Shown piece by piece: positions 58,615 to 60,497 of a stretch of DNA of 64,000 nt (the first letter of the stretch is position 1; each line of letters starts with the position of its first letter). Source of the DNA: Escherichia coli. GTDB lineage: Bacteria; Pseudomonadota; Gammaproteobacteria; Enterobacterales; Enterobacteriaceae. Position numbers and translations under genes: made by a program. The notes under the pieces were generated by a model. That model did no database searches. It worked only from the letters and a program-made list of their open reading frames with translations, and was not told the DNA's origin. The stretch lies in NCBI RefSeq assembly GCF_003334765.1, contig NZ_QOWT01000014.1; one strand, given 5' to 3'.

Positions 58615-59400
58615 CTACGCGTCTTCCTGGGGAAGAATGATTTCAATTTGGCTGTCTTGTAAGCGTGATTTTAGCGCAGCGGGCGGCAGCTCGTCGGTAA
58701 AGAGCGCAGTGACCTGTGCCACGTTACCAATTTCAACCGCCGCCGAAGCATGATACTTAGTGTGATCGGCGACCAGCAGAATATTTCTCGCGTGCGCCAT
58801 CATCGTTTTCACCACGTTAGCTTCGTTTACATCAAACTCCATCAACGCGCCATCGCTCTCAATCGCCCCAACGCTTGTTACCAGATAATCAGCACGAAAA
58901 TCAGCCACAAAGGACGCCGCTGAAGGGCCAATGATCCCGCTATTATGAGAGCGCAACGTACCGCCGGGCACCATCACTTCAAAGCGCGGGTTGTGGTAAA
59001 GAATATGCGCCACACGCAGGCTGTTGGTGATTATCCGCAAATGATTATGGTTAAGTAACGCCCGGGCAACATGCTCAACAGTCGTACCAATGGTGATAAA
59101 TATTGTTGAACCATCAGGAATATAGTCTGCCACCGCTTCGGCAATCGCTTTTTTTTCCTCGGTTTGCGAAACCTCACGCTGCTCGAACGCCGTATTAACG
59201 ACGCTGGAAGCCCGACCCGCGCCACCGTGATGGCGCGTAATCAGGCCTTGCTCGCTTAATTTACGAATATCCCGGCGGACCGTCTGCGTGGAGACATCCA
59301 GCAGATTTGCCAGCTCATCAATATTCATATACCCACGCTCGGCGATCAGCATGAGGAGTTGGTCGTGCCGCGGGTTACCGGTTAGTTCGGTAAGGCTCAT
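58615..59400 (-). CDS. csqR: DeoR-family repressor of sulfoquinovose catabolism genes
   Basis: Track ORF 269 aa; ATG at 59400 gives 261 aa MSLTELTGNPRHDQLLMLIAERGYMNIDELANLLDVSTQTVRRDIRKL; also known as yihW. Confidence 0.88.
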   Translation of the reverse strand: MSLTELTGNPRHDQLLMLIAERGYMNIDELANLLDVSTQTVRRDIRKLSEQGLITRHHGGAGRASSVVNTAFEQREVSQTEEKKAIAEAVADYIPDGSTIFITIGTTVEHVARALLNHNHLRIITNSLRVAHILYHNPRFEVMVPGGTLRSHNSGIIGPSAASFVADFRADYLVTSVGAIESDGALMEFDVNEANVVKTMMAHARNILLVADHTKYHASAAVEIGNVAQVTALFTDELPPAALKSRLQDSQIEIILPQEDA

Positions 59401-59433
59401 GAAAATTCCTCGAAAAACCATCACCCTGGCATT

Positions 59434-60330
59434 TTATACAAAAAGTGACAAAAAAGATCGGGTTTGATCACAGTCAGGGATCCCGGCTCGTCCACCGGGA
59501 CGTGTGCATTTTAACGCCGCTACACCGCTGGCGAAGCGGACTGACTCCGCTAAATCCCCACTTGTTGCCAGCGCCACCGCCAAAGCGCCGTGAAAAACAT
59601 CACCCGCACCTGTGGTATCTACCACATCAACTTTGAAGGCCGGTTGATGCTGACGCCCACCATTTTCCAGCCAGTCGCAGCCTGCGCTACCCTGGGTCAC
59701 ATAGACATGACCATTTGTGAGCGTTTGTGCCTGTTTTAGCGCACTGGCCATCTCTTTCACGCCCGTTAAGCGCGCCAGACCCGGTTCTGAAAAGGCCGCG
59801 TGATCGCTTAATGCCACCAGCTCACTGATATCCTGCGGCGTAATGTCCCCGTCCAGAACGGTCATCACACCCGCCTGACGGGCCAGGGTGAAGGCTTTTT
59901 TAGCGCCGTCGTGCCAGCGTACATCTGCCAGCACAACATCCCACTGAGAGAAATCAATTTCCTCCAACCACTCTGCGTCAGGCAGCAGATCCGGGCTGGG
60001 GTAGTTAATGATTATCCGCTCGCCTTTGGTATCCACCATGATGGCGGATTGCGAAGATTTCGCCTGGTTATACCGTTTGGTGTAACGGGTGTTAACGCCC
60101 CAGGATTCCAGCTCTGCCAGCAGGCTGTTGCCCGTGTCGTCATCACCTACGCGACCAATAAAATCGACCTGCGCCCCCAGCCTTGCCGCCGCAACCGCTG
60201 CCGTCGCCGCTGGCCCGCCACCAACTTCCGTATAATTTCTCGCCACGTATTTACCGCTCTCCGTCGGTAACCCTTCCACGTAATAGATGCGATCCATCAC
60301 GGTTATACCTACACAAGCAACACGAATCAT
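59434..60330 (-). CDS. yihV: 6-deoxy-6-sulfofructose kinase (PfkB family)
   Basis: 298 aa from ATG at 60330, MIRVACVGITVMDRIYYVEGLPTESGKYVARNY; C-terminal DTTGAGD motif. Confidence 0.9.
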   Translation of the reverse strand: MIRVACVGITVMDRIYYVEGLPTESGKYVARNYTEVGGGPAATAAVAAARLGAQVDFIGRVGDDDTGNSLLAELESWGVNTRYTKRYNQAKSSQSAIMVDTKGERIIINYPSPDLLPDAEWLEEIDFSQWDVVLADVRWHDGAKKAFTLARQAGVMTVLDGDITPQDISELVALSDHAAFSEPGLARLTGVKEMASALKQAQTLTNGHVYVTQGSAGCDWLENGGRQHQPAFKVDVVDTTGAGDVFHGALAVALATSGDLAESVRFASGVAALKCTRPGGRAGIPDCDQTRSFLSLFV

Positions 60331-60497
60331 GGTCATTCCTTAAACATTTTGGGATGCGTTCATTTTAATTTCACCAATTGTTTAAAAAGTGACGGCTGTC
60401 AATTTTTTGACGATAAATTACAAATACGATCAAAAACAGACAAGCAAAGCATGTCATAAATGACAAAAAGTGACATCACTGTATTCAGGAGAGGGTT

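Follow-up and report, generated by a model that had tools for sequence, protein, structure and literature searches.

Candidate recognition boxes for the repressor CsqR in the yih sulfoglycolysis control regions of Escherichia coli

The yih genes and their regulator

The DNA analyzed here is a 64-kb stretch of the Escherichia coli genome, which we call the window, and it carries the sulfo-EMP genes csqR (yihW), yihV, yihU, yihT and yihS. The yih region of the window is 100% identical to many E. coli genomes with the same gene annotation. The csqR gene (58615-59400, minus strand) encodes a 261-aa repressor of the DeoR/GlpR family, according to its translation and to the RefSeq annotation of identical E. 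coli DNA, and yihV (59434-60330, minus strand) encodes the 298-aa sulfofructose kinase (translation and RefSeq annotation). In the divergent direction, yihU (60498-61394, plus strand) is the first gene of yihUTS and is assigned to sulfolactaldehyde 3-reductase by NCBIfam and RefSeq, with a score of 603 bits against the equivalog model NF012005 (cutoff 348). The cluster is only partly contained in the window, as had been recognized from the sequence: the boundary cuts it, and yihR, yihQ, yihP, yihO and ompL lie beyond position 64000.

The best NCBIfam model for CsqR is the DeoR/GlpR model NF008154, at 257 bits and hence below the equivalog cutoff, and the DeoR/GlpR models match residues 10-254. 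The homologues of CsqR carry HTH_DeoR (PF08220) and DeoRC (PF00455) domains. By these matches, CsqR is classified as a DeoR/GlpR-family protein with a predicted N-terminal DeoR-type helix-turn-helix and a predicted C-terminal DeoR sugar-binding domain.

The control of yihUTS, yihV and csqR by CsqR is known from K-12 (Shimada et al. 2019, Microbiology 165:78), where the genes and the two DNA regions involved are the same as those of the window. The published work (Kaznadzey et al. 2018, PMC5816610; Sharma et al. 2021, PMC8006165; Gao et al. 2021, PMC8464067) describes repression by CsqR, induction by sulfoquinovose, sulfoquinovosyl glycerol and sulforhamnose, cooperative binding, the involvement of CRP, the csqR start site and a single strong ChIP-exo peak. 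Purified CsqR binds both the yihU/V spacer and a csqR upstream fragment, and this binding is cooperative and reversed by sulfoquinovose (PMC8006165; PMC8249747; PMC12608037). According to the literature, sulfoquinovose, its glycerol glycoside or sulforhamnose release the repressor, and K-12 CsqR binds the spacer of the short cassette equally well (PMC12608037). Among the other papers named here, none gives a recognition sequence for CsqR.

A conserved TGACA box in both control regions

The original prediction drew attention to short repeated words in the two yih control regions and proposed them as operator half-sites of CsqR. Reading the sequence, we find AAAAGTGAC at 60385-60393 and 60466-60474, TGACGGCTGTCA at 60390-60401 and the palindrome TGTCATAAATGACA at 60452-60465. 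A further word, AAAAGTGACA, lies at 59441-59450, in codons 293-296 of yihV and 41-50 nt upstream of the csqR ATG. These positions are as claimed, with the exception of a one-base slip in the start of AAAAGTGACA (given as 59440). The 9-mer AAAAGTGAC has exactly three copies in 64 kb, all within the two yih control regions; in the shuffled window the mean is 0.49 copies, and three copies are reached in 2 out of 100 shuffles. Measured against dinucleotide-preserving shuffles, the 167-bp yihV/yihU spacer is enriched in TGACA/TGTCA (4 occurrences, 0.85 expected, P-value = 0.005) and in TGAC/GTCA (7 occurrences, 1.73 expected, P-value = 0.001).

The comparison covered approximately 65 orthologous loci, together with the divergent E. 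coli short cassette. A de novo EM motif search converged on poly-A/poly-T and was replaced by k-mer z-scores against dinucleotide shuffles. In the unalignable leader segments of 11 loci, TGACA/TGTCA is the top 5-mer after the Shine-Dalgarno word (23 occurrences, 6.4 expected, z = 7.3), although shuffle P-values overstate independence because the compared loci are related. The leading 6-mers in the same segments are AATGAC, ATGACA and GACAAA. When 33 TGACA instances from non-K-12 loci are considered together, they have in common AAA at positions -4 to -2 and an A/T-rich 3' flank. The repeated box is AAAnTGACAwwAA, approximately 13 bp long and with the core (T/G)(G/T)ACA, and many conserved copies read ATGACA, TTGACA or CTGACA, with no GTGA. 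Nearly all of the ~65 loci with usable spacers have it next to the csqR orthologue, and it is likewise present in 8 distant loci and in the yih control regions of the divergent E. coli short cassette. The box is conserved in orthologous regions, and the repeated A-tract and TGACA words to which the original prediction pointed are real, conserved and above chance in shuffles. Their conservation goes beyond the neutral level, since they form islands in variable sequence and coincide with frozen synonymous sites. A core of ~80 bp is nearly invariant, so that conservation alone is unable to separate the contacts of repressor, activator and polymerase.

The 33 non-K-12 instances were used to build a box matrix, whose scores are biased towards the TGACA core because TGACA was required in every instance. 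Over the 128,000 positions of the window, the sites at 59442-59454, 60457-60469 and 60467-60479 rank 1, 2 and 6, respectively. Twenty-one matches reach at least 10 bits, and four of them fall within the 246 nt of yih control DNA, where 0.08 are expected. Across 14.5 kb of the K-12 cluster, no site other than these three reaches 17 bits. The remaining top-ranking matches in the window are within coding sequence, at the beginning of fdhD and in tpiA (placed by converting coordinates), and look accidental. Among the minor gSELEX targets of CsqR (trxB, yeaC, hyfB and accC), only yeaC has an 11-bit match (P-value = 0.05 before correction), and a scan of the minor CsqR ChIP-exo peaks with the box matrix returned nothing above 6.6 bits; neither set of minor sites has a convincing box.

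The best match in the window is box a (AAAGTGACAAAAA; 59442-59454, plus strand), which lies in the spacer of the csqR promoter, within yihV codons 292-296, and reaches the maximum score that a matrix made from non-K-12 loci allows. The csqR -10 hexamer TAAAAT (59431-59436, minus strand) overlaps the yihV stop codon (59434-59436). In 54 out of 54 pattern-matched loci this hexamer reads TAAAAT, TAGAAT or TAATAT and keeps a constant distance of 8 nt to the core of the box, and in most of the remaining loci it is seen by eye; the spacing TGTCAC-N8-TAAAAT is invariant. The published csqR start site, at -27/-28 from the ATG, corresponds to 59427/8 (PMC5816610). The sequence GTGACAAAAA is kept in 7 of the 9 distant loci despite changed residues, while of the other two one has TAACA (L074) and one is devoid of the box (L076). 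Third-codon identity is 0.83 at the 3' end of yihV and 0.48 over the whole gene (rank 1 of 286 windows). Over the last 14 codons of yihV, conservation at third positions far exceeds that in the rest of the gene, which bears out the proposal that the csqR promoter lies within yihV coding sequence. Further upstream, we observed a CRP-like sequence (59457-59478, minus strand) with a TGTGATCA half-site at 59465-59472 and a dyad with three mismatches at 59463-59478, the exact register being uncertain, and with a conserved block GTTTGATCACAgTC. For this promoter fragment, a CRP site at -41.5 and CRP gel shifts have been reported (PMC5816610).

The csqR promoter has a single copy of the box; in the yihU promoter and leader the box forms helically phased direct repeats. 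The yihU -10 hexamer TACGAT (60425-60430, plus strand) precedes a start site at ~60435-37, in agreement with the published position at -62/-63 from the ATG, or 60435/6 (PMC5816610), and reads TAnnAT in all loci listed (TAnnCT in two). Box i (TAAATTACAAATA; 60414-60426, plus strand, 10.1 bits) lies directly upstream of this hexamer and overlaps it, and ACAAATA is found there in all loci, mostly preceded by TT. Box h (AAACAGACAAGCA; 60434-60446, plus strand) is weak (6.4 bits) and spans the yihU start site at a distance of 20 bp from box i; it is conserved as AAAcagaCa and keeps the offset of +20 in most loci. Two stronger copies follow in the 5' leader. Box d (TAAATGACAAAAA; 60457-60469, plus strand, ~+22 to +34) scores 17.7 bits, tied for rank 2 in the window, and is a conserved island amid variable sequence at an offset of +43 from box i. 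Box e (AAAGTGACATCAC; 60467-60479, plus strand, 15.2 bits), which holds the second AAAAGTGAC, repeats it directly after 10 bp, with a conserved tGaca island at +53. The four cores, at 60418, 60438, 60461 and 60471, are all on the same strand.

In 17 other spacers, same-strand GACA pairs 10-11 bp apart occur 13 times (0.33 expected). Measured from the TTACA box (i), itself found in all loci, the box offsets are 20, 30-32, 41-43, 51-53 and 64 bp, approximately multiples of 10.5 bp. In leaders unrelated to K-12 this phasing is significant (P-value ~0.002, Rayleigh test), with the test defined after the data were seen. The yihV leader of distant loci is likewise filled by three boxes, 10-11 bp apart. 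The units are phased direct repeats and not inverted half-sites. The palindrome TGTCATAAATGACA does not hold as an operator dyad. Its left arm, TGTCA (60452-60456, plus strand), falls within a variable block (60443-60458) and is found among 57 spacers only in E. coli and E. whittamii, and it is lost even in E. albertii, which has CGCATTACAAATGACA; the palindrome is, as judged from these sequences, an accidental by-product of box d. An inverted repeat TTTTTGA-N20-TCAAAAA (60403-60436) was also considered; it is inside the ChIP-exo interval described below, and we did not adopt it because it overlaps the -10 and only part of the distant loci retain it. As for RNA elements, the leaders have no Rfam match up to E = 1.

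All these boxes lie within the two regions reported to be bound by CsqR. The ChIP-exo reads refer to NC_000913.2 and the gene coordinates to NC_000913.3, and we converted one into the other with an offset of 1977 bp, which presumes the length that we take NC_000913.2 to have. This offset fits position 4071737 in PMC5816610. The only strong CsqR peak (4071641-4071681, signal/noise 168; supplementary dataset 5 of PMC8464067) then corresponds to 60411-60451 in the window, over the yihU -10 and start site. Comparison with this footprint gives a mixed outcome: it covers boxes i and h (60414-60426 and 60434-60446), which are weaker and were unnoticed in the original prediction, whereas boxes a, d and e, the three best, are outside. 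The proposal of operator half-sites holds in part. The words at 59441-59450 and 60457-60475 are conserved islands with the top scores of a matrix from other genera, and the literature places them inside the two regions bound by purified CsqR. We infer that CsqR contacts the boxes directly, and the ~13-bp box is the probable recognition unit of the repressor.

A dyad probably shared by the divergent promoters

The first copy of AAAAGTGAC (60385-60393), together with TGACGGCTGTCA, behaves differently from the other words. As a CsqR half-site it is a poor match to the box (4 bits), and it is part of a 16-bp dyad, AGTGACGGCTGTCAAT (60388-60403; 4.1 bits), with the features of a shared class II CRP site. 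The conserved form of the dyad, AGTGAYNNNTGTCR, is found in nearly every locus (ATTGAC in L049), with only the three central bases variable. Its centre, at 60395.5, is 31 bp from the centre of the yihV -10 and 32 bp from that of the yihU -10, and these distances are invariant wherever both elements could be located, while the lengths of the leaders vary (55-79 and 30-128 bp). The yihV -10 hexamer TAAAAT (60362-60367, minus strand) is part of an invariant CATTTTAAT block, with a start site at ~60355, and the published yihV start site is at -25/-27 from the ATG (PMC5816610). A weak box on the opposite strand, box c (AAATTGACAGCCG; 60393-60405, minus strand, 6.9 bits), overlaps the right half of the dyad, occurs at the same offset (-21) in many loci and reaches up to 14.9 bits in two of them (L072 and L077).

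When aligned with the CRP core TGTGA-N6-TCACA, the dyad matches 7 of 10 positions in the window and 8 of 10 in distant loci, a level that is as frequent as expected by chance in 64 kb. Since CRP-consensus matches with three mismatches are not enriched in the 64 kb (203 observed, 215 expected), the consensus search cannot carry the assignment to CRP. A scan for consensus -35/-10 promoters found none in either control region. Class II CRP-dependent promoters have CRP centred at -41.5 and a weak -35. The yih promoters resemble them in the GTGA-N6-TCA(C) dyad, in its distance of 31-32 bp from the -10 centres, in the missing -35 consensus and in the CRP binding and dependence reported for yih (PMC5816610); they differ in that one site faces two opposed promoters and matches the consensus at only 7 of 10 positions. 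At the level of fragments, CRP gel-shifts the yih DNA, and crp-mutant data show an effect on expression (PMC5816610). Geometry and literature together indicate that 60388-60403 is most likely one CRP site shared by divergent promoters with no -35, at ~-41.5 of each, and we infer that CRP contacts the dyad.

The CRP assignment could in principle be extended to the boxes themselves, with the A-tract and GTGAC/TGACA words acting as CRP half-sites or polymerase elements (-35-like TTGACA, UP-like A-tracts) of overlapping promoters and the CsqR target lying elsewhere in 60411-60451. In this direction, AAAAGTGA resembles the CRP half-site AAATGTGA, TGACA matches five of the six bases of the -35 consensus, yihU start sites 10 bp apart (-15, -25, -35) have been reported (PMC5816610) and the best boxes are outside the ChIP-exo interval. 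We consider this reading unlikely, given that many conserved copies have no GTGA and that the dyad alone combines two half-sites separated by 6 bp. In addition, taken as -35 hexamers the boxes have no suitable -10 at 16-18 bp downstream, and the consensus scan returned no promoter in the spacers. Boxes are also placed after the main yihU start site, their phasing returns in unrelated leaders, and boxes i and h, inside the ChIP-exo interval, fit the same pattern.

Conversely, the dyad AGTGAC-GGC-TGTCA could be the main CsqR operator and not a CRP site, with the TGACA boxes secondary or unrelated. We find this quite unlikely: the ChIP-exo interval begins 8 bp past the dyad, the csqR promoter is bound by CsqR with a single box and no such dyad, CRP binds the fragment (PMC5816610), and the 31/32-bp spacing to both -10 hexamers in promoters with no -35 is what an activator site requires. 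This has to be set against the facts that the dyad is the most symmetric element and is present in nearly every locus, that it holds TGAC/GTCA words as the boxes do, that its match to the CRP consensus is by itself not above chance and that a repressor bound midway would affect both promoters.

OmpR/PhoB-type regulators typically bind head-to-tail 10-bp repeats with an ACA core, and the boxes have this habit. Another factor of this type, such as a winged-helix response regulator reading 10-bp direct repeats, is nonetheless a very improbable ligand: in all genera and cassette types that were compared the boxes occur together with csqR, also at its own promoter, purified CsqR alone shifts both fragments (PMC8006165; PMC12608037) and the ChIP-exo peak of tagged CsqR falls on boxes i and h (PMC8464067). 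That the repeats arose by chance in AT-rich intergenic DNA, as the base composition and the 2 in 100 window shuffles with three 9-mer copies might suggest, can be dismissed almost entirely in view of the dinucleotide-preserving shuffles, the conserved islands in variable sequence, the synonymous-site conservation and the top matrix ranks in 64 kb.

A model of CsqR operators and its relation to known systems

We favour, with somewhat better than even confidence, the reading in which the box array represents the CsqR recognition units of the sulfo-EMP control region and the dyad is a shared CRP site. Boxes i, h, d and e would constitute a same-strand array with spacings near whole helical turns, extending from just upstream of the yihU -10, over the start site, to ~+43 of the leader. 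A CsqR oligomer assembled cooperatively along one face of this array would block RNA polymerase at yihUp and interfere with the activator serving yihVp. The weak inverted box c overlaps the activator site. Box a, placed within the csqR promoter between its -35 region and its -10 hexamer, would provide weaker autorepression.

In its most complete form, which we regard as an even bet, the model states that CsqR reads a direct-repeat AAAnTGACAwwAA, as opposed to inverted repeats of the DeoR/GlpR type. The repressor would form a phased filament that starts at the shared class II CRP site, crosses the yihU start and enters the leader. The module made of -10, 31 bp, dyad, 32 bp and -10 would be rigid from Escherichia to Dongshaea, and one operator would be located in the last yihV codons.

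The binding of CsqR to both regions, the csqR start site and the binding of CRP are already published, and this work refines a known system. Compared with the K-12 studies, the box AAAnTGACAwwAA, its phased array, the shared dyad at 31/32 bp and the coding constraint are derived here. This base-level operator model is the sole part that may be new, and it may overlap with figures of Shimada et al. 2019. The established picture of a local DeoR-type repressor alongside CRP is unchanged. Few organosulfur compounds are as abundant as sulfoquinovose, and the yih cluster serves as the model for how it is broken down. A base-level model could guide the construction of clean derepressed or inducer-blind mutants and of sulfoquinovose biosensors, help to explain why short-cassette strains (Nissle, UTI89) respond differently and allow a search for CsqR-type sites in other genomes.

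The GlpR and DeoR repressors of E. coli use tandem or multiple operators, bound by tetramers or octamers, and their units are inverted repeats (TGTTCG..CGAACA, TGTTAGAATTCTAACA). The candidate CsqR boxes resemble these operators in being several units of ~10 bp, cooperatively bound and overlapping promoters, but they are mostly direct repeats with a TGACA core. At the glpA operator region, a minor ChIP-exo peak is seen with tagged CsqR (PMC8464067). The glpF upstream region in the window has no TGACA box and no GAACA/TGTTC word, which argues that sequence specificity is not shared with GlpR and that the architecture alone is comparable.

There are also parallels with promoters and operators that lie within the terminal part of the preceding gene: the csqR -10 overlaps the yihV stop codon, and the box and CRP-like sequence of this promoter occupy yihV codons 285-298, where synonymous sites are frozen. 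Such an arrangement is nothing unusual and is common in compact operons.

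Control regions of the yih locus

Between 58.6 and 63.6 kb the window hosts the Escherichia coli sulfo-EMP (yih) locus, and many E. coli chromosomes carry annotated csqR, yihV, yihU and yihT that are 100% identical to it. The reading frames are csqR (58615-59400) and yihV (59434-60330) on the minus strand, and yihU (60498-61394), yihT (61418-62296) and yihS (62298-63554) on the plus strand. For csqR and yihV we adopted the RefSeq starts, where the mechanical ORF list runs on to upstream start codons. As originally predicted, the cluster is only partly contained in the window, whose end falls inside it.

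For this system the repressor, the DNA it binds, its inducers and the role of CRP are already published, and a base-level operator model is the only content that is possibly new. According to genomic SELEX and gel shifts, CsqR (YihW), a DeoR/GlpR-family repressor, binds two regions, the yihU/yihV spacer and the DNA preceding csqR. It does so cooperatively, and sulfoquinovose, its glycerol glycoside and sulforhamnose act as inducers that dissociate it (PMC8006165; PMC8249747; PMC12608037). A CsqR recognition sequence is absent from the papers compared here, those of Kaznadzey et al. and Gao et al. included. Kaznadzey et al. mapped start sites at -27/-28 for csqR, -25/-27 for yihV and -15, -25, -35, -62/-63 and -82/-92 for yihU, showed that CRP binds these promoter fragments, and, in the csqR promoter, assigned a CRP site to -41.5 (PMC5816610).

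The original prediction described repeated TGACA/TGTCA words as plausible CsqR operator half-sites. All word positions were confirmed, the sole slip being AAAAGTGACA, which lies at 59441-59450 rather than 59440-59450. The 9-mer AAAAGTGAC has three copies in 64 kb, all in yih control regions (0.49 expected), and the 167-bp spacer contains four TGACA/TGTCA (0.85 expected) and seven TGAC/GTCA (1.73 expected). The motif feature is real and functional-looking.

To these words we added a comparison across species. Searching with the CsqR protein yielded 67 loci, 63 of which have a csqR gene in Enterobacterales, and in nearly all yihS-T-U diverges from yihV-csqR. In the alignment of 57 spacers across genera, a core of approximately 80 bp (60362-60442) is almost invariant, whereas the flanking YihV and YihU are only 72-97% identical. 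Positions 60443-60458 form a variable block, and conserved islands occur at 60461 (tGACA) and 60471 (tGaca). Within the core, only the three central bases of a dyad, 60394-96, vary freely. The palindrome at 60452-60465, also proposed as an operator, did not hold up: its left arm (60452-56) lies in the variable block, and E. coli and E. whittamii alone have it.

We also considered two more distant sets, namely a divergent short cassette of E. coli (example UTI89) and eight loci whose CsqR shows 68-77% identity, among them Dongshaea, Limnobaculum, Nissabacter and Serratia microhaemolytica. Nearly all distant loci retain the dyad AGTGAYNNNTGTCR, the element ACAAATAnnATCA, mostly after TT, which joins a TTACA box to a -10 hexamer TAnnAT, and (T/G)GACA words every 10-11 bp or so in the leaders.

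A family of probably phased boxes

We scored k-mers against dinucleotide-preserving shuffles in the leader and csqR-upstream segments of 11 loci, which are unalignable with each other. After the Shine-Dalgarno word, TGACA/TGTCA was the top enriched 5-mer (23 versus 6.4 in leaders alone), and the next enriched 6-mers were AATGAC, ATGACA and GACAAA. No Rfam family matched. In the 33 TGACA instances outside the window, AAA occupies -4 to -2 and A/T-rich sequence follows on the 3' side, so that the consensus reads AAAnTGACAwwAA. When a matrix built from these 33 instances only was run over the 64-kb window, box a (59442-54, plus strand; AAAGTGACAAAAA) reached the maximum possible score and rank 1, box d (60457-69, plus; TAAATGACAAAAA) tied for rank 2 and box e (60467-79, plus; AAAGTGACATCAC) took rank 6, the remaining top matches lying in coding sequence, such as tpiA and the fdhD start. 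The original operator interpretation is partly right: boxes a, d and e are good operator candidates, unlike the dyad words and the palindrome. Individual re-scoring against a uniform background gave 10.1 bits for box i (60414-26, plus; TAAATTACAAATA), 6.9 for box c (60393-405, minus; AAATTGACAGCCG), 6.4 for box h (60434-46, plus; AAACAGACAAGCA) and 4.1 for the first predicted copy (60386-98). Within 14.5 kb of the K-12 cluster there is no further match of at least 17 bits and none of at least 11 bits in other intergenic regions, a distribution that agrees with the two SELEX sites. At 60476-60478, in box e but outside the core, the window (AAAGTGACATCAC) differs from MG1655 (AAAGTGACATAAC).

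Box i recurs in all loci. From its TTACA (60418), same-strand boxes follow, depending on the lineage, at +20, +30 to +32, +41 to +43, +51 to +53 and +64. With tests framed post hoc on related loci, a 10.5-bp period gave a mean resultant length of 0.86-0.88, with a Rayleigh p of about 0.002 for the eight boxes whose leaders are unrelated to the K-12 type, and same-strand GACA pairs 10-11 bp apart numbered 13 versus 0.33 expected. The yihV leader of distant loci is likewise filled by three boxes at 10-11 bp spacing, and in UTI89 the yihU-leader box pair is inverted as one unit. The spacing tests support a phased-box model without proving it.

The csqR promoter was predicted to lie within yihV coding sequence. 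This is borne out by third-codon constraint and by invariant spacing between box and -10, and the published start site had already implied it. Every position of the block 59430-59475 is conserved, and the last 14 yihV codons have a third-position mean pairwise identity of 0.83 against 0.48 gene-wide, the first of 286 windows. GTGACAAAAA is kept in seven of nine distant loci despite changes in the encoded residues, the exceptions being L074 (TAACA) and L076 (no box). The csqR strand shows an invariant TGTCAC-N8-TAAAAT arrangement, and the -10 overlaps the yihV stop codon. Taking +1 at approximately 59424, box a spans about -30 to -18. The distance from the -10 centre to a TGTGATCA half-site is 31 bp.

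Footprint of CsqR and a probable shared CRP dyad

YihW ChIP-exo returned one strong peak, 4071641-4071681 on NC_000913.2, with a signal/noise of 168 (Gao et al., PMC8464067). Using NC_000913.3 gene coordinates and a 1977-bp offset between versions, this peak converts to 60411-60451 in the window. The offset depends on the length assumed for NC_000913.2. It is consistent with the published placement of the -25 start site of yihV at 4071737 (PMC5816610). The interval corresponds almost exactly to boxes i and h plus a few flanking bases per side, and contains the yihU -10 and start site. The interval misses the dyad (60388-60403) by 8 bp and stops 6 bp short of boxes d and e. The comparison with published footprints, suggested originally, therefore favours the box family rather than the dyad as CsqR target, although through boxes other than the top-scoring ones. 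This mismatch may be explained by a single peak-pair call on a multi-unit complex.

The dyad comprises the first predicted AAAAGTGAC and TGACGGCTGTCA as its two halves. Its centre (60395.5) is 31 bp from that of the yihV -10 (TAAAAT, 60362-67, minus) wherever that hexamer was located, and 32 bp from that of the yihU -10 (TACGAT, 60425-30, plus) in every locus listed, whereas leader lengths vary (55-79 bp and 30-128 bp). Neither control region has a detectable consensus -35/-10 promoter. These distances resemble those of class II CRP promoters, where -41.5 corresponds to 32 bp. Both hexamers fit published start sites, at about 60355 and at 60435/6, respectively (PMC5816610). The dyad matches the CRP core at 7 of 10 positions in the window and 8 of 10 in distant loci, a level expected by chance in 64 kb. 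We therefore infer a shared CRP site from the geometry, from half-sites that are conserved around a variable centre, and from gel shifts published for CRP (PMC5816610). Elsewhere in the window, TGTGATATTTGTCACA at 48006-48021 fits the CRP consensus core with 0 mismatches. It sits where the fdhD frame begins, in the divergent fdoG/fdhD region, and its overlap with a 16.5-bit box match is probably coincidental.

Proposed mechanism, specificity and related loci

The motifs, their conservation and geometry, and the coincidence with the footprint are our observations; fragment-level binding, inducers and CRP effects come from the literature, and the bases touched by CsqR and by CRP are those we infer. 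A CsqR oligomer would lie along one DNA face, beginning at box i, covering the start site at box h and reaching boxes d and e, and would block polymerase at yihUp. Competition between CsqR and CRP for the shared dyad, by way of box c and steric overlap, would lower yihVp too. Autorepression would be weaker with only one box in the csqR promoter, which fits the lower SELEX and gel-shift signal at that promoter and its lack of a ChIP-exo peak. Once inducers release CsqR, CRP-cAMP would activate both divergent promoters.

Upstream of glpF there is neither a box nor a GAACA/TGTTC word, which argues that CsqR differs in sequence specificity from GlpR, its closest paralogue. Minor SELEX and ChIP-exo targets of CsqR contain no convincing box. 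The second-strongest YihW peak (signal/noise 13.7) falls on AAAAAACGAACTTCAG in the GlpR-controlled K-12 glpT/glpA spacer (L078 2590-2650), immediately upstream of the glpA ribosome-binding site, and hints that CsqR cross-binds weakly to a GlpR site. A minor peak upstream of K-12 ssuE (L086 340-380) covers TGTTAACATTGATAACA, a palindrome of DeoR-operator type (TGTTA...TAACA).

The short cassette occurs in about 1,330 of 5,426 complete E. coli genomes, at approximately 66% nucleotide identity, and adjoins glnA-typA. It has an additional zinc alcohol dehydrogenase and MFS transporter. Next to the inverted pair, it retains the dyad, the two -10 hexamers and the box of the csqR promoter (L069, UTI89, 4677-4790 and 5613-5785). 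In Dongshaea marina (L070 3068-3963) the yihV homologue is split over two reading frames (173 and 99 aa). Another locus (L073 3295-4000) is missing it, and a 706-bp remnant retains the spacer core and csqR-promoter box. In S. microhaemolytica (L076 3924-4000, 2715-2990) the csqR leader has about four tandem copies of a 15-bp unit, CTGATGTTATTTCGG, and TTGTTTATTGAT is repeated in the yihV leader. Finally, an 885-bp contig labelled Bacillus coahuilensis m4-4 (L054) encodes CsqR residues 52-261 at 100% identity to E. coli, and is almost certainly E. coli contamination of that assembly.
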